A stretch of DNA of 64,000 nucleotides from Candidatus Micrarchaeota archaeon (lineage in GTDB: Archaea; Micrarchaeota; Micrarchaeia; Micrarchaeales; CABMGC01), in NCBI GenBank assembly GCA_021810455.1, contig JAJZIU010000001.1, positions 4,613-68,612 of the forward strand, in the 5' to 3' direction. Position 1 is the stretch's first letter, and the number at the start of each line of letters is the position of its first letter. The notes under the pieces are model-generated. The model was not told the DNA's origin and did not search any database. It saw nothing but the letters and a program-made list of their open reading frames with translations. This document shows positions 5,604-56,429 of the stretch, one piece after another. The translations under genes were made by a program, and so were the position numbers.

Positions 5604-5660
5604 ATAAATCACAGAGTAATTTAAAGCGTCCAGTTTTAATAACTTTTCCACAAGTCGATA

Positions 5661-40516: not shown

Positions 40517-43500
40517 TCATCCGTATTTTTTGCGGATTGCGTAAATTGCCAATACTGAGGCAAGCGCAATCGCTAAAATAACTACTCCTAAGTTTCCATA
40601 TCCTAACTCTGCTAGTCCTATGTCCACCCCTTCTTGGGTATAATTAGGGAACCATTGGTAATTGAGTACATTAAATGTAGTGTACGATTTCGAGGTTGGA
40701 TCTGCAGATGAAGACAACCACGCTTGACTGGCTTGTAATGGTTGTGGGGAAGGAGACCCGTAAAACCTTGCAATTATCGTGGCACTCCCTATCCCACAAG
40801 CGTATATGCTGTTGCTAAAGAAACCCATCGAATTTGTTGTTGTTGTACCTACTAGCCCAAGCTGTGATGTGCACGTCCCTGTACCGTTGCTAAATATCGG
40901 TTGGCAGAATCTCTGTTGGCCATTTTGTCCCGGAGAACATGTTTGTGGAATATTTTTGTTTCCATCATTACCGTATATATTACAATTAGTATCTACTGGT
41001 ACAAGCAACGAATTTGGGGGAGGATTGCATTCTCCAAGCGAATTGTAGGCTGTTGAGTATGTTATGGTATTTGCGTTATTTGTCTGCCCTAAATAAACAG
41101 GATTTGCCAAAACGCAATTGCTAGGTATCTGTGCTCCGCTTCCAACATCTCCAAAAGCGCAAAGCATTGCATTTTTTTCATTAGATGGGTTTTGAAGTGC
41201 ATTGTATCCTATATAATTGATATTTGTATCATAATACAGATATATTAGCCCGTTTCTGAGAGGATAAAATTTATTGTTTATTGGACTGTAATATCCAACA
41301 GTACCATTTATGAAAATTTTTGTATCGTTTGCGTTATTCGAATTGACTACCGGGGTTACCTGTAGTGATATGCTTGTTGTATTCGCTATATCCGTATCAA
41401 GCGGGGCGTATATTGCGTTGCCGAATCTATCTCTTAATACAAAAACAAGCCTCTGATAACCTAGGACATTGGCAACACTTCCTGCGCCGTATTTAAAACT
41501 TGAACTGTTTATATTAAAACTCATAGGATTGTTGTAAACAATCTGCTGGTACCAATCAAAAAGCTTCACGAATGTAGGCAATGCTGAATTAATGTTGAAT
41601 ACGTTTTGATAAGATATGCCTGTCCTGGTATTAGTCGCTATCTTTTGATTTCCAACAAGAGCATACGCGGGTCCATTATAAGGGCCGTAAGGCAAAGAAG
41701 ATATTGTTTGATAACTCAAAGGCCCTAATTGGGTATTAAAGACAGTATTTATTATGTTGTACTCTAAAAGATCGGTTGCATTAAGCACCACTTGGTTATT
41801 CGTTGTTGGTCCTGTGGTAGCATTTACGTAAATGCTACCAAACTGCTTGTCTCCCTGAATATTCATTATCATCTGTGGATTTATGTAAGAACCTAGGTCA
41901 GACATGTTCGGAACATAATAATTACTTCCTTGGGGCCCGCTAAACTGAAGATAAATTCCACCCCCTTCAACATTTGCAGAAAGTGAGTTGGATCTTGCAT
42001 TTATTATTCCATAAGAAAAAATCTCGCTTGAACTTGAACTGGAATGACTTGATGGTGGGTTACTACACGATGCACCCTGCTGTATTGGTACCCCCGTGCC
42101 TGAAAATTGCCAATTCTGACTGGTTGAGTATGTGTATTTGTACGGTACCAACACATAACCTATAATATTGCTAGTCATGCTTACCGGGGAGGTAACCACC
42201 GAAGTTCCTGGAGGTATTGAAACAGACGTTCCCGTTATGCCACCAAGTTCCGAATTTGTAGGAGGTGTAAACCCTGAAAAACAACTCGAGTATGAACTCG
42301 AATTCAAAGAACCAGATTGCAAACTATTTATACACGTTTGATTGTAACTCTGCGATTGCTGTGACTGTGGACTTCCTCCTCCTCCAGTGAACGCAGATCC
42401 GAATAAATTCTGATATGATAATATTCTACCCGATCCCGTACTCTCCAAATACTTGAAAGGATCCGCAACCGTGTATATCGGTGCTGCAAGCTGATCTAAA
42501 TAAGAACTAGGTTTGCACGAGTTAGAATTCACTCCGGTATCTACAAAACATGAGAATAAACCTATTCCATCCAACAATCTTGTGTAATTTTCAATGCTTA
42601 CTTTTGCAAACAGAAGTTCTCCGTAGTCATTGGCAACAGTCTGGCAGTTAAGAAAACAGCCATTGTTGATGTGCTGCTGCGATGGGAATAAGAAGTCAGC
42701 AGTATAGTTATAATTTACTGAAAAACTGGACTGAGCTTCTCGTGGCACGCCACAACCTATGCCTATTCCAAAAGGCAGATTGAAGCAAGCTATGGCTTGA
42801 ACATTCGGTCCTAGTGACAAATAGCTCGATTTCAAGTTGTTTGGATTATAATCGCACGATTCTGAAGAACAAAAAGAAACATAGTTGCTATTATGTCCAC
42901 TTTCTAACACGTTTGCAGATAATACCCACCCATAAGGTGGATATGTATCATTAGGATAGAAACCAGGAGTGGCTGTTGTATAATACGTTGAAGTTGGTTG
43001 CCCCCCTGCACCAACACACTTATACTGGTATGTAGGAGCCTCTCCAGTTCTTGCACTAGTAACTCCCAAAGCACTGCCTGGACATGTTGATGAAATCTGT
43101 GGAGAACAGCCAACCGCAGCATTGCAATTAGGAACTACTCCACATTTAGATACTTGTGGTGTATTACATGTTGCCGCTCGCTGTGAATACATGTCGTTGA
43201 ACTTCGTAGGGTTAAATGGCACATTGGTTCCAGAAGAATTTATGACTCTAAGTAATAACGTATTGAAAAAGACACCTTGTCCTGAAATCCCGGGCACTGG
43301 CCCCGGAGTGCCAACGTACCCTCCCCAATTGTCTAAAACATACAAATATCCATTAACATCCTGAATACCTATTGGGTGGTGAAATGCTTGCGTATCAAAT
43401 GCAAGACCTTGATACTTCTGCGTTTGTACTGCTGATAGTGCAGACTTAATCCAACCTGGTGTAATACCATATAATCCGCCATTCTCCAAATACGTCGCAA

Positions 43501-46060
43501 TATTAAGATTCGCCAAGGTTGTTGATACACTCTCACCAGGAATAATTCCTGGAGACGCGGTGGTGTTCGAAACAGGCAAATTAGCATTATAATCAAAAGT
43601 AAGATCGATACTGTCTTCTAAGGCAAGCGAATTCCCGCTATAAACCTCTATGCTGCCATAAGATGGGCTTGCTAAATAAATCTGTTGTCCGCTTGGTGAA
43701 ACTGTAATCTCCTGGAATTGTTTATCTATTGTATTTGTAGTCACTGCTGGTGAACCTGTCAAGATGCCAGTTATCTCAACCAATGAGGGATGTGTTGATT
43801 GTATAGGGCCTCTGTTAGTTTGGATTGATGTCGTGGTACTACCAACAATGAAAACATCCCCATTATTATCTACTGATATATTGAATGGTGTAAACCCTTG
43901 CAATTGCGAAAAACCATTCAAGTCAGATTGGGAAATCAAATAACTATAACCGTTTTCACTATTTGCCACAAGCCCCCAATAGTTACTCCATGCGGTATTC
44001 CATTGCGAAGTGCAGCTGCTTTCAGATGCAGGATTGCAACTCACTTGTTGGATTGCTGATGTGGGTGTCTGTGGATTTGTAAAAGACCCTTTAGGTATGG
44101 CTCTTAAAACATTAAGTTGATATGCTCCAGATGTCCCAGTAAGTACGAATATGTAGTCATTGGGCATAACTGCCACGGATAGTGGACTCGGTAATGCGGA
44201 AGGCGGTCCAGATATTATACCACAGTTTGGACTACCTTCGGTACACCAAGGTAGACCGTTCTGCCCTTGGAGACAATTATTGTACTGTTTGCCATTGTAC
44301 GTATAAAGTCCTATTCCACCATCCATTGCTCCAGAGTAGGTTGTGGGCATGTATTGACAGTATGCCCCTACAAACTCGTTTACTGCTGGATCATCAAATG
44401 TCTGCCAATAACAAAACTTCTTACCCTGGACAACACCTGGGCAATTCTGATAGTTACTTCCAAAATATTGGATATAATCTTGTGCCCACTGCATTTCGCA
44501 TAACGGATTAAATTCCCAATTTGAAGCTCCTGTGGAGCAACTAGAAGGATTATAATTTGGTACTACTGGGTTTTGGTCATTCTGCAATAAGCCACAAGGA
44601 CATTTTCCACTTCCACCATATGTTGCTCCAGGATAGAAACCACTTTCAGCATTAGCTATAGAAACTATTATTTCCAATTCCGTTCCTGTAAAACCGGCTT
44701 GTTGCGCACATGCTACAACTTGTGAAAACTGCATCTTATAATGTGGAGAATTTTGGAAGTTTTGGTCAGGACAAGTTGCGGTTTGACTTGAACTAGTCTG
44801 TGCCTGTCCTGTTTGACTTGTGGTTGTTGTAACGATTCCTAGGCGACCTCCAACTCCTCTTACTGGTTGTGTTACTGCGCTTCCTAAGTTATTAAGAATA
44901 GTGCCTATTTGTGCAAGTGTATCTTCCTTTCCATTAAATGCACAAAGAAGACTGTCGAGACTTAAAACTACCTGGCCACTACTCTGGCAAGTTAAAAGAC
45001 TACCGCTATAATTTACAAACAAAATACCTGGTATGTCTACACTGAATGGATCAACTATTGATGGAGTATAATAATTCCAAGGGCTGAATACGTCATACTG
45101 CAAGTTACTTATCTGTGGAACCATGGTGGATAAAGACCCTGGTACGCCTATACTATATCCATAAGTAAGATATGGTAACGCTGGGGTATCAAACTGTGAC
45201 ATTATCGGATTCCCATTGTTATCCACTCCTGTAACTACGTTGAAAGGTATGTAACTATTTGCTATACTTCTCAATGTGGTCGTTTCACCGTAATTATACG
45301 TATACTGGCAACCATTCTCATCGTATGTTAGATCCTGCTCATTTATCTGTTTCGACTGTGGCAACCGTGCATTAGCTCCTTCAAAATTTGCAAAAGTTGC
45401 ACTCCAAGTCCATATATCATTCTGCGCGAAAGAAGGAACGCCGTTGAATATGTACGTGTTCGTTGCAAATCCGTTAGACAATTCCCCATCTACCATCGGT
45501 GTATAAGCTATATTCTTGACTTCTGCATTACCCGGATTGCCAACTTGCAGTGGGCCTACTGATGCCTGAGCGAGAGAAGATTGAGACCAGGTTACTGTGG
45601 TCACGAGTGTCAACTGACTCACAAGTGAACCCTGTGTGTTAAGACACGGCGCACCCGCAACGAACGGCACAATCCCGCTATAAAACAACACGTTAGATGT
45701 TGGGTCTGATGGCACATTTTCACATGTAAGAAACTTCAAGGCCTCCTGTTGATTTTGATTAGCAACTTGTAATACTGGGGATTCCTTGTAAATCTGTCCT
45801 TCTGGAGTTGAACTTTCCGAAGATGAAAAAACACCCGAATAGCTTGTAGTAAACGGAACCGTTATGGTGCTCGAAGCACTTCCGGAAGAAGGTTGTTGAA
45901 ATACAACATTATTAAATCCTGAATTTGATGGCGTTTCAAAAGATGCGTTGTAAAAATGCGATGTTAATAAAATCCCAAGTGCAAAAAATACAAGAGAAAG
46001 TACTAGTAAACATGAAAATAGAAAAGGCCATGCCTGGTCTTTTTTATCCTTAGCAACCAT
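40517..46060 (-). CDS. Giant (1,847 aa) Cys-rich surface protein with N- and C-terminal hydrophobic anchors, an SLT/lysozyme-like segment and NHL-like repeats
   Basis: Uninterrupted 5.5-kb ORF. N-terminal WPFLFSCLLVLSLVFFALGILL and C-terminal VVILAIALASVLAIYAIRKKYG. IANAESGF...CGLLQ lies at residues ~468-493. Blades include PIGIQDVNGYLYVLDNWGG. The composition is S/T/N/G-rich with few charged residues, many Cys and many N-x-S/T sequons. Confidence 0.85.
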   Translation of the reverse strand: MVAKDKKDQAWPFLFSCLLVLSLVFFALGILLTSHFYNASFETPSNSGFNNVVFQQPSSGSASSTITVPFTTSYSGVFSSSESSTPEGQIYKESPVLQVANQNQQEALKFLTCENVPSDPTSNVLFYSGIVPFVAGAPCLNTQGSLVSQLTLVTTVTWSQSSLAQASVGPLQVGNPGNAEVKNIAYTPMVDGELSNGFATNTYIFNGVPSFAQNDIWTWSATFANFEGANARLPQSKQINEQDLTYDENGCQYTYNYGETTTLRSIANSYIPFNVVTGVDNNGNPIMSQFDTPALPYLTYGYSIGVPGSLSTMVPQISNLQYDVFSPWNYYTPSIVDPFSVDIPGILFVNYSGSLLTCQSSGQVVLSLDSLLCAFNGKEDTLAQIGTILNNLGSAVTQPVRGVGGRLGIVTTTTSQTGQAQTSSSQTATCPDQNFQNSPHYKMQFSQVVACAQQAGFTGTELEIIVSIANAESGFYPGATYGGSGKCPCGLLQNDQNPVVPNYNPSSCSTGASNWEFNPLCEMQWAQDYIQYFGSNYQNCPGVVQGKKFCYWQTFDDPAVNEFVGAYCQYMPTTYSGAMDGGIGLYTYNGKQYNNCLQGQNGLPWCTEGSPNCGIISGPPSALPSPLSVAVMPNDYIFVLTGTSGAYQLNVLRAIPKGSFTNPQTPTSAIQQVSCNPASESSCTSQWNTAWSNYWGLVANSENGYSYLISQSDLNGFSQLQGFTPFNISVDNNGDVFIVGSTTTSIQTNRGPIQSTHPSLVEITGILTGSPAVTTNTIDKQFQEITVSPSGQQIYLASPSYGSIEVYSGNSLALEDSIDLTFDYNANLPVSNTTASPGIIPGESVSTTLANLNIATYLENGGLYGITPGWIKSALSAVQTQKYQGLAFDTQAFHHPIGIQDVNGYLYVLDNWGGYVGTPGPVPGISGQGVFFNTLLLRVINSSGTNVPFNPTKFNDMYSQRAATCNTPQVSKCGVVPNCNAAVGCSPQISSTCPGSALGVTSARTGEAPTYQYKCVGAGGQPTSTYYTTATPGFYPNDTYPPYGWVLSANVLESGHNSNYVSFCSSESCDYNPNNLKSSYLSLGPNVQAIACFNLPFGIGIGCGVPREAQSSFSVNYNYTADFLFPSQQHINNGCFLNCQTVANDYGELLFAKVSIENYTRLLDGIGLFSCFVDTGVNSNSCKPSSYLDQLAAPIYTVADPFKYLESTGSGRILSYQNLFGSAFTGGGGSPQSQQSQSYNQTCINSLQSGSLNSSSYSSCFSGFTPPTNSELGGITGTSVSIPPGTSVVTSPVSMTSNIIGYVLVPYKYTYSTSQNWQFSGTGVPIQQGASCSNPPSSHSSSSSSEIFSYGIINARSNSLSANVEGGGIYLQFSGPQGSNYYVPNMSDLGSYINPQMIMNIQGDKQFGSIYVNATTGPTTNNQVVLNATDLLEYNIINTVFNTQLGPLSYQTISSLPYGPYNGPAYALVGNQKIATNTRTGISYQNVFNINSALPTFVKLFDWYQQIVYNNPMSFNINSSSFKYGAGSVANVLGYQRLVFVLRDRFGNAIYAPLDTDIANTTSISLQVTPVVNSNNANDTKIFINGTVGYYSPINNKFYPLRNGLIYLYYDTNINYIGYNALQNPSNEKNAMLCAFGDVGSGAQIPSNCVLANPVYLGQTNNANTITYSTAYNSLGECNPPPNSLLVPVDTNCNIYGNDGNKNIPQTCSPGQNGQQRFCQPIFSNGTGTCTSQLGLVGTTTTNSMGFFSNSIYACGIGSATIIARFYGSPSPQPLQASQAWLSSSADPTSKSYTTFNVLNYQWFPNYTQEGVDIGLAELGYGNLGVVILAIALASVLAIYAIRKKYG

Positions 46061-51513: not shown

Positions 51514-51584
51514 CTGATCACCAAAAGCAGCATATGTATTTATATTATTATCTCTAAATAACTATCTCTTGGAGAGTGGGCTTA

Positions 51585-51797
51585 ATGGTCAAAAAGAAGA
51601 AAAGTTCGGACAAGTTAAAAGCTTTGATGAGAACACAGGAGCTTAATGAATTTCTTGAAAGAAGCACTATAGAAAGCGAAGCATTGCAGAATGTTGGTGA
51701 TGATCGGCCTTCTTACGAATCTCACGTGTTTGATTTACTCGAGAAGAGCAAAGGCACTGCAAAACAAAAAAAATCTGTGAAAGGTAAAAAACACTAA
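51585..51797 (+). CDS. Small basic hypothetical protein
   Basis: ~70-aa Lys-rich ORF (MVKKKKSSDKLKAL...KQKKSVKGKKH) in a short divergent/convergent gap, with GGAGAG upstream. No family recognised. Coding status uncertain. Confidence 0.3.
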   Translation: MVKKKKSSDKLKALMRTQELNEFLERSTIESEALQNVGDDRPSYESHVFDLLEKSKGTAKQKKSVKGKKH

Positions 51798-51798
51798 A

Positions 51799-53028
51799 TC
51801 ACAATACTCCAATTTCCTCATCTTTTCCTTCCTTTCTTTTTCCAGATTTTCCAACTGACAATCGTATTCCGTTTGGATCTCTTGTTATTGTTATGTCCAA
51901 ATCATCACTACCTAACATGTGTCTTAGTTCTTCGTATGTGTAAGATCCGATATCTTTTCCTTCTTCCCTTTCCTTCCCTTTAAGGACCTCAGCTCTTCTT
52001 TCTATAAGAAAGTCCCTCTTGATCTGTGTATAAGAAAGTTTTAGTTTCGGTTTCTCTGCTCCGTACGTGTCTTCTATGCCTAGCTCTATTGGTTTGTAAC
52101 CTTCGCTTTGATATATGAATGGCAAAACTGCTGAGAATTCAACCTTGATTGTGTTGGCAACCTTACCAACTCCTGACTTATCTCCAGCTATTACAAAATC
52201 TTCACTATTCAGGAAACCAACAAAAATGTTGCTTCCGGTCTCTTTGACTTTATCCTGTAGTAACTGTGATGCTAGTCTCAGGATTGTCACTCCGGATTTC
52301 ATACCGAATTTTCCTGCAAAACCAGCAAGACCTTCAACCCTCAATCTACCTATTTCATAACTACTATTTGTATTGCTTAGCGCCTTCTCAACAGCATCCG
52401 ATATCTTTTCCTCATTCGGCAAGTCTATCAAAGGATCAAATTTTTTACCCTTCTTTTTAAGAAATATTGTTACAAGACTTCTAAGTTCTCCAGGATCAAA
52501 TGGTTTCTTTATGTAATAATCCGCCCCGTACTTTATCCCCTTGAACCTATTCGAAGTTGCATCCATTGCGCTTACGATTATTACTACCGTATTGCTCATC
52601 TGTGAGTCCTTTTTTACAGTCTGACATATTTCCAACCCGTCAGCTCCGGGTAACATGAGATCTAAGACAACCAAATCTGGTTTTATCTGTTTTATTTTTC
52701 TTATGGCTTCTCCACCATCATATATCTGTTCTACATCGAATCCCTTACCTATAGATATCGCCATGAGATTGTTTATGTTTTTATCGTCTTCAACTATCAG
52801 TATCTTCCTCAATGACGGCCTATCTTGCAATACGTAATACGTAGGTATACCTCCGCTGCTCCTAGAAGCTATGGCGCTTGCTTTTTCAAGTTCTACGAGT
52901 CCCTTCTTCAGAGTATCTTCTGAGATTCCTTCTGTTGCTGCAAAACTTCGAAGTTCATTATATGTTATTTCTTGCCTTTCATTGATCACATAAATAATAT
53001 CCGCTTCAGCATCTTCTAGGGTTTTCAA
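51799..53028 (-). CDS. Response regulator: wHTH - CheY-like receiver - degenerate GGDEF-like domain
   Basis: 409 aa. Receiver: KILIVEDD, DLVVLDLMLPGADG (phospho-Asp ~D123), KKPF. Then FDPLIDLPNEEKI (compare DPLTGLPNR at the GGDEF start), FAGKFGMKSGVTIL (compare FKxiNDxyGHxxGDxvL), and GFLNSEDFVIAG (compare RxGGDEFxill). TTG start. Confidence 0.75.
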   Translation of the reverse strand: MKTLEDAEADIIYVINERQEITYNELRSFAATEGISEDTLKKGLVELEKASAIASRSSGGIPTYYVLQDRPSLRKILIVEDDKNINNLMAISIGKGFDVEQIYDGGEAIRKIKQIKPDLVVLDLMLPGADGLEICQTVKKDSQMSNTVVIIVSAMDATSNRFKGIKYGADYYIKKPFDPGELRSLVTIFLKKKGKKFDPLIDLPNEEKISDAVEKALSNTNSSYEIGRLRVEGLAGFAGKFGMKSGVTILRLASQLLQDKVKETGSNIFVGFLNSEDFVIAGDKSGVGKVANTIKVEFSAVLPFIYQSEGYKPIELGIEDTYGAEKPKLKLSYTQIKRDFLIERRAEVLKGKEREEGKDIGSYTYEELRHMLGSDDLDITITRDPNGIRLSVGKSGKRKEGKDEEIGVL

Positions 53029-53147
53029 ACAATCGCCTTAACCTAAATTTCACGTAAAGTATATTATTCCTTGCAAGCAACGCGTTACATGTCTTGCCTT
53101 TTCAAACTTCAGAAACTCTTTTTAAGGCTTTCGTAGTATGTGTACAC

Positions 53148-54191
53148 ATGGAATCCACTAATCCGCTTGGAACCACCACGTTTCAACAACCGCAGGTCCA
53201 ATCCACCATATCCAATAAGCCACGACCAAGGAGAAAGCATTCGAGACGTCATAATAAACTAAGGCTTCCTATTAAAAAAATTTCAATAGCTGTAATAATA
53301 ATTGCTGTAATTGCAATAGCCATAGCCGACTTTGCTGGTTCTAACGGTATTGTAAACATAACTTACAACAAAACCGTAATGCTGAATGTAAACGGCAGTA
53401 TAACATTTGCTGTTGGTGGAACCGGAAAAACTGTACTCTATCTTGCATCTTCGTATAACAACATTTCAACATTTTATATAAGCCAGTATCCGGTATTGGA
53501 AAATCCAGTGTATACATTCACACTTACTCCTGGAAATACTGAAAACATAAGTTCAACATTTTCACAAAACGCAGACGTTCAGATAAGGCTAATAAACAGC
53601 GGATCTAATTCTGCACAAGTGGAAATAACTAAGGTGCCCGAGGGATTCTCTATACGTCCTAGTTTGATAAACACACTCTCACAAAATGCAACATATCAAC
53701 CTACAACTACTGTACCATATGCTTCAACTTCAGCTTCAACAACAACTGTAAAGCCTATCAACACCTCTACAACGGTATTATCTGATGTAAATCTATCTAA
53801 CATAGGCAAACTTATGCAAAATTTCGGAGTATTATATCGTGCTGGAAGTTCCTGTACAGAACAATTGTACAATACCACACTGATTCAATACAAGGGTATT
53901 CAACCAAAAGGCCAATTCTCTTACTACAACATAAGTATGTCAACACCTACGAATGTGAAAATCACAATTTCTAAGTCTACAGGCAGCAACTATTTTGTAA
54001 ATTATACCGTGCAATTGCCACGCGCGCAATTTTCAACTCCCTCTGTAAGTGTTTTGTACGATTCTTCAAGCAACAGTGTGATGAGCACTGTGTTCGGAGG
54101 CGCTTATCAGGGTCTTAATTATACGGCACTGAATCAGGAATACCAATTCCAAAGTGGCATAAGCAATGCATGTGCAGCTTATGTGACATAA
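53148..54191 (+). CDS. Membrane-anchored extracellular S/T-rich protein
   Basis: ATG 53148 (MESTNPLG...). Basic cytoplasmic stretch KPRPRRKHSRRHNKLRLPIKK, a single TM ISIAVIIIAVIAIAIADFAG, then a ~270-aa S/T/N-rich ectodomain with N-x-S/T sequons. Lies between the response regulator and kinase genes. Confidence 0.55.
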   Translation: MESTNPLGTTTFQQPQVQSTISNKPRPRRKHSRRHNKLRLPIKKISIAVIIIAVIAIAIADFAGSNGIVNITYNKTVMLNVNGSITFAVGGTGKTVLYLASSYNNISTFYISQYPVLENPVYTFTLTPGNTENISSTFSQNADVQIRLINSGSNSAQVEITKVPEGFSIRPSLINTLSQNATYQPTTTVPYASTSASTTTVKPINTSTTVLSDVNLSNIGKLMQNFGVLYRAGSSCTEQLYNTTLIQYKGIQPKGQFSYYNISMSTPTNVKITISKSTGSNYFVNYTVQLPRAQFSTPSVSVLYDSSSNSVMSTVFGGAYQGLNYTALNQEYQFQSGISNACAAYVT

Positions 54192-56429
54192 TCATTCCTG
54201 CTTCTTTTTCTGTTTACCGTATATGGGGAGTGTGAACCAGAATGTACTTCCTTTCCCTGGTTCAGACACGACTCCCATCCTCCCTCCATGGAGATTCACA
54301 ACCTCTTTAGCTATTGACAAACCAAGTCCTGTACCCTGCCCCTCCTGTCTGGTAAGGCCTCTTTTCGGTAATTGATAAAACTTTTTAAAAAGTTTTGATT
54401 TATCTTCCTTACTTATTCCTATTCCTGTATCTTGTACTTCAAACCTGATATTCTTTCCCTTCCTAACCACATTAACTCCGATACTTCCTTCGTCGGTGAA
54501 TTTTAATGCGTTTCCTATAAGGTTTACGAACACCTGAATCAGTCTATTCGGATCCGCTTCTATCTCTGGCACATTATATCCAACATTAAAATAGAACCGC
54601 AAATTTTTGTTTGCTGCAACCTCCGCTAATGATTTTATGCTAGGATTTTCACCAAGCATCTTAAAATCTACTTTTTGCATGTCAAGTTTTATTTTTCCAG
54701 ATGACAATTTTGCCACATCCAATATCTGGCCTATCAACTGCATTAATCTTTCAGATTCATCTATTATTATCTGCACCGTTTTCTTCTGATCTTGTGTTAT
54801 GTCTCCAAATTCTCCTCCAATCAGGAGTTTTGAGAAACCTATGATATTTGTTATCGGAGTTTTAAGATCGTGTGATATATTATATATAAATTGGGTCTTC
54901 AAGTCGCTTTCTTCCTTTAGTTTCTCAAGCTGTCGCATAGATTCCTCAAATTCACTCTGCAATCTTTCTATCTCTCTTTTTGAAGCTAGCTCTGTGCAAA
55001 CAAATAAAAATTCTACAGATGCTTCTCGGTTTTTTGTTGCCATTACGCTTCCATTGAAAGGCATCGGTTCTTCCCCGCTTTTCTTTGAAAAATTAAGAAA
55101 AACATCTGTAACGAATCCATTTACTTTTGCAAGTTTTATCGCATTTCCCACTCTCAATTGGCTTTCTTTATCTGAGCACAACATCGATATGGGCATACTA
55201 TTTGAATCCTCTGCTTTGTAACCCAAACGTCTTTCAAAACCAGGATTTACTGATTTTATATATCCTGATTCATCAACAGTTATCAATGTGTCACTTGACA
55301 ATTTCATAATTGTCGAAATTGCACCTTCAACTTCGGTTATCCTGCTTTCAATGTCTCTAGAAACTATTACCGAGAAGCCTTCGACATCCTTGTAGAAAAG
55401 GCCTTTTGCATCAACAAACATGTTGTTTCCTATGTTTATTTTAAGCGGCAGAGATGCCTGTTCATTCATATTACTGAGTTGTTGTTCATCCAATCCTTGA
55501 ACAAATTCCACCAATTTTCTACCTATTAACGCATCTTTCTCTATGCGCAGTACACGGTCTGCATTATCACTAACCCATCCTATGTTTGTATCATTGCTTA
55601 TACGCATGAAAACATCTTCATCGCTCCTTTCCAAAAAACTATACATTCCCTCAAGCCATTTGAGCCTGGTTATATCTAGCAAAGAGATGTGTGATAATCT
55701 GTCGTTTATTTTGTTCGAAGAAAACAGAAATACGCCTTTGTCATCCCTGGACTTTACCTCAATTCTCATATTCTTTGAAAAAGAAGCAGAAGGATCCTGT
55801 CCCAATTCTATAAACTTTGTTATTCCTTGCCCGACCACCTCCTCGGATATCTTATCCAACATATTTATTGCGTTTTTGTTAGCCTTGACTATAACTCCGG
55901 AACCATCAATGACAAGTTGCGGCACGTAATTTCCAAATGAAGCATCAAAGTACTTTGCTAGCCCTAGACTCTTGTCACGCTCATAGCTTGCGAGTATCCT
56001 ATAACTTAACGAATTCAAAGCTAAAGAAATATGATCTACTATTTTCTCACTGAATGCATCTTCTCGTTTTGATAAAAGCGTAATTATCCCGAAAGATCTC
56101 CTTTCTGCACTAAGAGGAAGCAACAAACTGCTTTTATATCCGCTGTTATGGTACTCGATTAGCTCTTTGAAAGCCGAATATCCACTAAGCCTGTTATCCA
56201 GATACGGTTTTTCATTATTTAAAACAAAATCCTCTGCCGCACTGGCTTTTACACCCGGTCTCATATCTTTAACAATGGCCCTATCTGCGCCTAACTCTAA
56301 TCTGAGTCTATCTCCAAGTTTGTTCAGGAAGTTGCCGAAATCTGTTGCTTCCCTGCTCATGTTTAATATTTCATTGACGAATACGTCCCAAGATGTTGAC
56401 GCCATAGCAAACAATAAAGAATTAGGCAT
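54192..56429 (-). CDS. Soluble sensor histidine kinase (GAF/PAS-like sensory region + HisKA + HATPase_c)
   Basis: 745 aa. H-box FIYNISHDLKTPITNIIGF, N-box VNLIGNALKFT and G-boxes QDTGIGI / GTGLGLSIAKEVV. No obvious TM helix. The N-terminal ~480 aa has a PAS/GAF-like length and pattern. Confidence 0.86.
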   Translation of the reverse strand: MPNSLLFAMASTSWDVFVNEILNMSREATDFGNFLNKLGDRLRLELGADRAIVKDMRPGVKASAAEDFVLNNEKPYLDNRLSGYSAFKELIEYHNSGYKSSLLLPLSAERRSFGIITLLSKREDAFSEKIVDHISLALNSLSYRILASYERDKSLGLAKYFDASFGNYVPQLVIDGSGVIVKANKNAINMLDKISEEVVGQGITKFIELGQDPSASFSKNMRIEVKSRDDKGVFLFSSNKINDRLSHISLLDITRLKWLEGMYSFLERSDEDVFMRISNDTNIGWVSDNADRVLRIEKDALIGRKLVEFVQGLDEQQLSNMNEQASLPLKINIGNNMFVDAKGLFYKDVEGFSVIVSRDIESRITEVEGAISTIMKLSSDTLITVDESGYIKSVNPGFERRLGYKAEDSNSMPISMLCSDKESQLRVGNAIKLAKVNGFVTDVFLNFSKKSGEEPMPFNGSVMATKNREASVEFLFVCTELASKREIERLQSEFEESMRQLEKLKEESDLKTQFIYNISHDLKTPITNIIGFSKLLIGGEFGDITQDQKKTVQIIIDESERLMQLIGQILDVAKLSSGKIKLDMQKVDFKMLGENPSIKSLAEVAANKNLRFYFNVGYNVPEIEADPNRLIQVFVNLIGNALKFTDEGSIGVNVVRKGKNIRFEVQDTGIGISKEDKSKLFKKFYQLPKRGLTRQEGQGTGLGLSIAKEVVNLHGGRMGVVSEPGKGSTFWFTLPIYGKQKKKQE

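Follow-up and report, generated by a model that had tools for sequence, protein, structure and literature searches.

GGDEF domains and signalling through cyclic di-GMP (c-di-GMP) are bacterial hallmarks, and Micrarchaeota are tiny symbiotic archaea. What a GGDEF-like domain is doing in one of them is the question raised by a response-regulator gene in a 64,000-nucleotide stretch of a Candidatus Micrarchaeota archaeon (GenBank assembly GCA_021810455.1, contig JAJZIU010000001.1, positions 4,613 to 68,612; referred to here as the window). An earlier note, made from the letters of this DNA, had read the product as a winged helix-turn-helix (wHTH), a canonical receiver (REC) and a degenerate GGDEF domain, and had taken the last to be a probable non-cyclase sensor or effector or else a nucleotide cyclase of altered specificity. 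The strings on which that reading was built are all present in the open reading frame (ORF) 51799..53028 on the minus strand, each where the note had placed it: DLVVLDLMLPGADG begins at D118 of the receiver, FDPLIDLPNEEKISDAVEKAL comprises residues 197-217 at the opening of the GGDEF-like domain, FAGKFGMKSGVTILRLASQLL residues 237-257, and IFVGFLNSEDFVIAG, which contains NSEDF, residues 268-282. The interval it had delimited, 52009-52440, corresponds to residues 197-340. We find that the C-terminal domain is truly homologous to GGDEF diguanylate-cyclase domains, recognizable by profile and fold and lying below the Pfam threshold, that it appears to have lost catalysis, and that the wHTH-REC-dead GGDEF protein is the lineage-typical response regulator of Micrarchaeota and the norm within the phylum.

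Single-sequence scans find only the receiver, which explains why the domain is missed by routine annotation. The Pfam GGDEF family PF00990 (gathering score 23.8 bits), against which the earlier note had proposed to check the protein, gave no match for the whole protein or for its C-terminal half, even at E ≤ 10. The C-terminal 218 residues matched nothing in Pfam at this threshold, NCBIfam recognized the receiver alone, and phmmer against sequences of the Protein Data Bank (PDB) returned receivers only; the two stretches of PleD that it matched are the two REC domains of that protein and not its GGDEF domain. Membership of the PucR/CdaR-type GGDEF_2 family was rejected, as no such Pfam match was obtained at E ≤ 10. 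A precomputed PF00990 match exists for only 4 of the best 120 family clusters. Of the 17 sequences of one family alignment, 12, two of them bacterial, match PF00990 at E ≤ 1.

At the level of profiles the relationship is clear. A homology search with the C-terminal half yielded 21 relatives, mostly unnamed, including one annotated by JGI as 'GGDEF domain-containing protein' and one from a Micrarchaeota metagenome-assembled genome (MAG). The best matches of a 12-sequence family profile of this half among PDB sequences were 6eib (E 0.0021) and DosC (4zve, E 0.012), with NSEDF/NSDDF placed on GGEEF/GGDEF in the alignments. Searched exhaustively against 1.84 billion representative proteins, the 12-sequence profile retrieved 719 at E ≤ 0.001, about 20 of them full-length family members, while the rest match only profile positions ~7-120. 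GGDEF proteins were retrieved at E values down to 3.5e-11, and all 36 sampled non-family matches carry PF00990, 20 of them together with a receiver; the family profile reaches the PF00990 proteins that the single sequence does not. Alignment of the family to those GGDEF proteins with hhalign gave a probability of 99.0% (E 3.1e-18, 137 columns) and reproduced the residue correspondence drawn previously, with NSEDF on GG[DE]EF and FGMKSGV on YGHxxGD.

Predicted structures point the same way. In an AlphaFold2 (AF2) model of the C-terminal half alone (predicted local distance difference test, pLDDT, 75.7; predicted template-modelling score, pTM, 0.72), nearly all of the top 50 Foldseek matches in the PDB are GGDEF domains, at a probability of ~1.0 and a target template-modelling score, TM(target), of 0.46-0.59. 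The top matches are 6tts, 4zvg, 5euh, 3bre and 2wb4, and the matches include DgcB, DosC, GcbC, SiaD, a Thermotoga GGDEF domain, WspR, PleD and the degenerate GGDEF of LapD. For the full-length model (pLDDT 71) the best PDB matches are WspR (3bre, 3i5a), PleD and DgcR, bearing out the comparison with PleD and WspR that had been suggested. The medium-confidence model shows the GGDEF palm fold, a beta-alpha-alpha-beta-beta-alpha-beta core with the motif on a beta-hairpin.

The active site of this domain has been dismantled. Counts of loci given here and below refer to the best 80 of at least 168 genomes, and residue counts to an alignment of 81 sequences, for which the full-length orthologue was extracted from each of these 80; residues were mapped through the hhalign alignment to the bacterial consensus Y-DlDnFKayND-YGF-rGD...FvGHIGGDDF. 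The roles of the corresponding residues of PleD are established by structural work on PleD and WspR. The metal-binding Asp at the start of beta1 (PleD D327), suspected from the outset to be lost, is replaced by R230, and the family has Arg in 60, Lys in 13 and other residues in 8 sequences. The Lys of FK has become A235 (Ala in 70/81), the guanine-binding Asn (PleD N335) A238 (Ala in 77/81), and the guanine-binding Asp (PleD D344) V247 (Ile, Val, Met or Leu in every sequence). The Gly pair of the motif is likewise gone from NSEDF, as had been claimed. Among the orthologues the motif reads NGDDF (43), NSDDF (13), DSDDF (10), NSEDF (4), NADDF (4) or other variants (7); Gly never occurs at its first position, and the second is Gly, Ser or Ala. 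The RxxD inhibitory site (I-site) expected five residues upstream of the motif strand is absent as well: positions 265-268 are GSNI here and vary across the orthologues (Gly, Lys, Glu and others at 265; Val, Ala, Ile or Thr at 268), never forming RxxD. A deeper clade of identical architecture, also from Micrarchaeota MAGs, carries GEGEF, GNGEF, GESSF, GDSFF or GENAF at the motif position, so that even the acidic pair seems dispensable. Because the first Gly, the metal-binding Asp, both guanine-binding residues and the I-site are missing throughout the 81 orthologues, the domain is, on the evidence of its residues, not a cyclase, in agreement with the non-cyclase reading of the earlier note.

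The receiver, by contrast with this dead domain, appears intact. Its match to PF00072 (E 5.3e-24) is that of the canonical receiver described before, with D123 (52660-52662) as phospho-acceptor. E80, D81, D123, S153, Y172 and K175 are present in all 81 orthologues and D82 in 78, and no other stretch of the protein is as well conserved as alpha4-beta5-alpha5 (0.88-0.99); as judged from these positions, the receiver retains all residues required for phosphorylation. A basic KKKGKK linker joins its alpha5 directly to FDPLIDLPNE at the opening of the GGDEF-like domain. This motif, ILRLxSQLLQD and LPFIYQSEGYKPIELGIED are invariant within the GGDEF-like domain of the family. In mean pairwise identity the GGDEF-like core reaches 0.67 and the tail 0.75, compared with 0.77 in the receiver and 0.57 in the wHTH, which indicates purifying selection on the dead domain.

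The tail is specific to the family. AF2 models it as a short helix and a beta-hairpin (EELRHMLG..LDITITR..G(I/V)RLSVGK, ~30 residues). The closest bacterial GGDEF domains finish at ...GSxYxxDRR, and the archaeal proteins extend ~30 residues past the shared GSxY motif. A ~25-residue insertion in a MAFFT alignment had raised the possibility of a separate domain after residue 335; we set this aside, since the spacing to GSxY is equal in the bacterial relatives, which suggests a normal GGDEF alpha4 followed by the 30-residue tail.

Translation probably starts at TTG 53028. This codon stands where orthologues have their ATG, after a conserved GGCGAT(C/T) that is kept 3-6 nt ahead of the start codon in most loci and supports TTG as the true start. 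The element looks like a lineage-specific Shine-Dalgarno sequence.

The gene belongs to the archaeon. At least 168 species-level genomes encode a relative in a scan of one genome per species, and the best 80, in answer to the survey that the earlier note had called for, are all Micrarchaeota-type MAGs, a few of them under the label Marsarchaeota or 'uncultured archaeon', and among their contigs are some of 0.66-0.85 Mb. The window carries an archaeal fibrillarin and an Lhr-type helicase and has a uniform GC content of 36-40%. The gene order is fibrillarin (opposite strand), histidine kinase, divergent membrane ORF, regulator, small convergent ORF and Lhr helicase. Among the 80 loci the kinase is found upstream on the same strand in 57, the membrane ORF in 65, the small ORF in 62, fibrillarin in 51 and Lhr in 47, many of the absences being contig ends. 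This conserved synteny identifies a genuine archaeal gene and answers the caveat of Galperin et al. 2018 (J Bacteriol 200:e00681-17; PMC5847659), who left contamination possible for the Micrarchaeum regulator. In Micrarchaeota the regulator is authentic and occurs widely, and its age has sufficed for the family to split into clades.

The identical protein occurs on 9 contigs of public assemblies, and a copy of at least 90% identity is labelled merely 'response regulator' in a MAG labelled Marsarchaeota. That label is found on several source MAGs despite their Micrarchaeota-like locus. One MAG has two regulator loci (DAHXKV010000020.1 and DAHXKV010000049.1), 67% and 65% identical to the query, which are either a true paralogue pair or the product of a bin of two strains.

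Public annotation misses the dead GGDEF domain almost everywhere. The labels in use, among them 'response regulator', 'DNA-binding response OmpR family regulator' and 'CheY-like chemotaxis protein', either say little or are incorrect. OmpR/PhoB-family membership was rejected, as the family models match the receiver only (residues ~74-200, 60-92 bits against cut-offs of 270-500) and Pfam finds no Trans_reg_C effector domain in the protein. CheY is a stand-alone receiver of ~120-130 aa, and the present protein has 409 aa and three domains.

The coordinates of the gene, its domains and its neighbours are collected in the table below. The kinase has no hydrophobic segment by hydropathy and is therefore taken to be cytoplasmic. 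The membrane ORF, for which no Pfam family was found, has one transmembrane helix and an ectodomain rich in Asn, Ser and Thr that carries 12 N-x-S/T sequons; the ORF is conserved at ~30% identity and evolves fast. The two-component system could act on it as a target or use it as a co-sensor. The small convergent ORF matches no Pfam family. Elsewhere in the window, a very long ORF of 1847 aa (40517-46060, minus strand) lies upstream of an AAA+/TPR gene.

Features of the regulator locus, in window coordinates
Feature	Position	Strand	Basis or remark
Response-regulator gene, 409 aa, TTG start	51799..53028	(-)	ORF list; wHTH - REC - degenerate GGDEF - C-terminal tail
Predicted winged helix (wHTH), residues 1-72	52813..53028	(-)	AF2 topology, weak Pfam/PDB profile matches
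Receiver (REC), residues 75-191	52456..52806	(-)	Pfam PF00072, 85 bits vs cut-off 30.2
Basic linker KKKGKK, residues 191-196	52441..52458	(-)	94% column conservation; net charge ~+5
Degenerate GGDEF (diguanylate-cyclase-like palm), residues 197-365	51934..52440	(-)	hhalign, profile search, AF2, Foldseek
Former substrate/metal-binding segment RVEGLAGFAGKFGMKSGV, R230-V247	52288..52341	(-)	hhalign column mapping
NSEDF, N274-F278, at GG[DE]EF position	52195..52209	(-)	profile and hhalign alignments
Family-specific C-terminal tail, residues 366-395	51844..51933	(-)	AF2 secondary structure; boundary inferred
Shine-Dalgarno-like GGCGATT	53031..53037	(-)	sequence before TTG start; putative function
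Dyad-symmetric BRE/TATA-like promoter element TTGCAAGGAATAATATACTTTACGTG	53051..53076	(-), dyad on both strands	22-48 nt upstream of start codon
Divergent membrane glycoprotein-like ORF between kinase and regulator	53094..54191	(+)	start TTG 53094 or ATG 53148, uncertain
Presumed cognate histidine kinase, 745 aa, PAS-HisKA-HATPase_c	54192..56429	(-)	Pfam
Lys-rich ORF, 73 aa, convergent on regulator	51576..51797	(+)	its stop 1 nt from the regulator's stop

The region between the regulator and the divergent ORF contains a 17-bp dyad, AAAG-N-ATA-T-TAT-N-CTTT, which is found upstream of the regulator in 78-80 orthologous loci with the consensus gAaAAagaATATTATaCTTTC. It carries 19 bits of information, where the fibrillarin and Lhr promoters carry ~12, and it is the best match of its position weight matrix in the window on both strands. 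Weaker similar motifs occur at the intergenic promoter positions 5656, 19836 and 61221 and at a few intragenic sites, and with such copies at other promoters of the window the dyad is not assignable as a regulator-specific operator. De novo motif searches upstream of Metallophos, RNaseH and TPR260 returned only the coding sequence of the preceding genes. The dyad may be a bidirectional promoter in which a TFB recognition element (BRE) and a TATA box serve the regulator as well as the divergent membrane ORF; alternatively, it may be an operator that overlaps the TATA box. As a lead for a transcriptional role it is a weak one.

How might such a protein work? The explanation we favour, and hold to be rather probable, is that it is a phospho-switch regulator of Micrarchaeota built from a winged helix, a receiver and a dead GGDEF domain with its 30-residue tail. 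The neighbouring soluble PAS kinase would phosphorylate D123, and the conserved alpha4-beta5-alpha5 face would then drive dimerization, as in regulators of the OmpR/PhoB, PleD and WspR types. The dead GGDEF domain would neither make nor sense c-di-GMP and would be retained as a module with a structural or regulatory role, perhaps offering a second dimer interface or a surface for binding partners; candidates for such surfaces are ILRLxSQLLQD, LPFIYQSEGYKPIELGIED and the tail. The output would most likely pass through the N-terminal winged helix as DNA binding, possibly including autoregulation at the dyad promoter shared with the divergent membrane-protein gene.

DNA binding by the predicted winged helix is plausible. 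In the AF2 model residues 1-72 have the H-E-H-H-E-E topology of a winged helix, H1-S1-H2-H3-S2-W-S3 (pLDDT 64-89). The Pfam matches of this region, Penicillinase_R (19.5 bits vs 22.6), PaaX, HTH_20, MarR_2 and TrmB, all fall below the curated cut-offs, and its profile matches the winged helices of CodY, BlaI/MecI, Lrp, TFE and ArsR/SmtB among PDB sequences weakly, at E 0.002-0.1 overall and at 0.002-0.05 for CodY and BlaI. K/R at positions 41-42 and R56 are conserved.

Several observations weigh against this proposal. The kinase is not adjacent to the regulator in about a quarter of the loci, and confidence in the AF2 models is medium (pLDDT 71-76) and drops to low in loops at residues 311-324 and within the tail. 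The D/E-D-F part of the motif is retained in the main clade, D277 and F278 in 81/81, and may be compatible with residual metal or nucleotide binding. The similarity to known wHTH domains is weak (E 0.001-0.1); the winged helix carries a mean net charge of -6, and the putative recognition helix, at -2, shows no more than moderate conservation. The wing, AIASRxSGGILTYYxLQ, by contrast hardly varies among orthologues, a pattern that also fits a protein-protein or intramolecular docking role. Because weaker copies of the dyad sit at other promoters, it could equally be a symmetric BRE/TATA element serving both divergent genes.

The alternative that survives best builds on these points. It holds that the protein is an adaptor that does not bind DNA, in which phosphorylation would alter the protein contacts of the dead GGDEF domain, the tail and/or the acidic winged helix with no transcriptional step. 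The acidic winged helix with its invariant wing and variable recognition helix is in its favour, as are the weak matches of 8 of the 23 N-terminal domains to the non-DNA-binding winged helix of MCM4 and the combination, in the dead domain, of family-specific invariant surface motifs and a conserved tail. It also fits the argument that archaeal two-component signalling acts mainly via protein-protein interactions, proposed as the output of most archaeal response regulators (PMC5847659). We nevertheless consider an adaptor unlikely, given that the N-terminal profile finds its best PDB sequence matches in winged helices that bind DNA (CodY, BlaI/MecI, Lrp, ArsR), that the basic residues at positions 41-42 and R56 are conserved, and that the dyad in the gene's own promoter is unusually well conserved; no candidate partner is evident besides the neighbouring kinase and the membrane ORF.

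Degenerate GGDEF domains often turn into receptors: PopA, PelD and SgmT bind c-di-GMP, and the GGDEF domain of GdpP binds ATP. These precedents, the retained D/E-D-F of the main clade and the purifying selection on the domain would suit a nucleotide or second-messenger receptor that integrates a small-molecule signal with phosphorylation. Such a role is improbable here. The variable positions 265-268 offer no RxxD site, the guanine-reading Asn and Asp have given way to Ala and to Ile, Val or Met, the metal-binding Asp to Arg or Lys, and the deeper clade has shed the acidic pair too; moreover, enzymes of c-di-GMP metabolism are essentially unknown in archaea (PMC5847659). We likewise see only a slim chance that the dead domain might bind some nucleotide, be it a second messenger, GTP or ATP, or might retain a non-canonical nucleotidyl-transferase activity. 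If it did, a single switch would combine phosphorylation with a nucleotide signal from metabolism or from the host, and could control the divergent surface glycoprotein gene and hence host attachment.

An active nucleotidyl cyclase of altered specificity, the other option of the earlier note, is very unlikely. The palm fold has been kept, the motif of the main clade has its acidic pair, and the closest bacterial relatives have GGDDF motifs, some with weak matches to the Cas10 palm. Against this, one of the two metal-ligand positions is Arg or Lys in 73/81 sequences, the first Gly of the motif is lost in all 81, both base-specifying residues and the Lys of FK have been lost, and the deeper clade has motifs such as GESSF and GDSFF. 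Bacterial contamination of archaeal bins, raised as a possibility in PMC5847659, and chance resemblance, which the failure of the single sequence in Pfam might suggest, can both be dismissed in view of the synteny with fibrillarin and Lhr in dozens of independent Micrarchaeota-type MAGs with uniform GC in the window, and of the profile-level statistics from hhalign, the exhaustive search and Foldseek.

The earlier note had regarded a wHTH-REC-GGDEF architecture as unusual. Among archaea it is indeed rare, archaeal genomes being generally without regulators that have GGDEF or EAL outputs (PMC5847659), and the family is among very few GGDEF-derived domains reported in Archaea. It is not new, and within Micrarchaeota it is the norm: a 'WspR-like (REC + inactivated GGDEF)' regulator in Ca. 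Micrarchaeum acidiphilum ARMAN-1/-2 has been known since 2018 (PMC5847659). The tables of that study (Tables S2/S3) list BK997_02000 of ARMAN-1 and UNLARM2_0239 of ARMAN-2 as REC-GGDEF, with the kinases BK997_01990 and UNLARM2_0237, and Mia14_0100 as 'wHTH-REC-bGlyc', with the kinase Mia14_0098. They give a single regulator for each of the three genomes and one two-component system per Micrarchaeota genome (PMC5847659).

These published regulators resemble the present family in phylum, in being the only one in their genome, and in having REC with an inactivated GGDEF (ARMAN) or a wHTH (Mia14). Judged from the locus tags (0098/0100, 0237/0239, 01990/02000), they also share the spacing of kinase, one gene and regulator. 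From phylum, spacing and domains we infer that they are orthologues, and we regard them as the same family. They are not among the best 120 homology matches listed, all of which are closer relatives from other MAGs. PMC5847659 labels what is apparently one family in two ways, 'REC-GGDEF' for ARMAN-1/-2 and 'wHTH-REC-bGlyc' for Mia14. It does not give the full wHTH-REC-dead GGDEF architecture, a residue analysis, the distribution or the synteny, and the literature searched beyond it yielded no further mention of the family. What is added here is the unified three-domain architecture, the inactivation at residue level, the archaeal authenticity and spread, and the conserved neighbourhood and promoter.

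The protein is reportedly the sole response regulator in several tiny, host-dependent Micrarchaeota genomes. With one kinase and one regulator in the genomes censused, it offers a simple candidate system for asking what a minimal symbiotic archaeon senses. The dead domain is best read as a relic, a bacterial-type REC-GGDEF that lost catalysis and gained a winged helix, and provides no evidence for archaeal c-di-GMP signalling.

In its domain layout the family is similar to LtrR of Methanococcoides burtonii and FilR1 of Methanosaeta harundinacea, which also combine an N-terminal (w)HTH with a receiver and have a demonstrated or proposed transcriptional output (PMC5847659). The likeness is one of layout: both lack a GGDEF-derived domain, and FilR1 has DUF1724 and a C-terminal REC.

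The bacterial REC-GGDEF regulators WspR (3bre/3i5a), PleD (1w25/2v0n) and DgcR (6zxb) share with the family the order of REC and GGDEF and the phospho-acceptor chemistry. Residues 75-332, comprising both domains, align contiguously and almost without gaps across the linker to bacterial REC-GGDEF regulators, over ~260 residues at 24-28% identity. The nearest group is an uncharacterized GGDDF subgroup with NPLTxLPGN...DLDNFKAYND...FVGHIGGDDF, for example the Chloroflexota protein NOZ06155.1. Members of this subgroup are often fused to REC, CBS or EAL, and 4 of 36 sampled weakly match the Cas10/Cmr2 palm2 model. The bacterial proteins keep DxD, N, D and GG(D/E)(E/D)F and are known or presumed cyclases, whereas the archaeal family has lost all of these. 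It also differs in having no I-site and no long coiled-coil stalk, and in the gain of the N-terminal winged helix and the C-terminal tail. In the simplest history, a bacterial-type REC-GGDEF unit would have been acquired, after which catalysis was lost and the winged helix and tail were added.

In the fate of its GGDEF domain the family is more like PopA, PelD, LapD (6pwk/3pjw), CsrD and GdpP, all bacterial and none with a winged helix. PopA and PelD bind c-di-GMP via an RxxD I-site, which the archaeal family lacks, and LapD and CsrD couple GGDEF with EAL. What these proteins have in common with the micrarchaeal regulator is a GGDEF fold retained after catalysis was lost and reused as a regulatory module.

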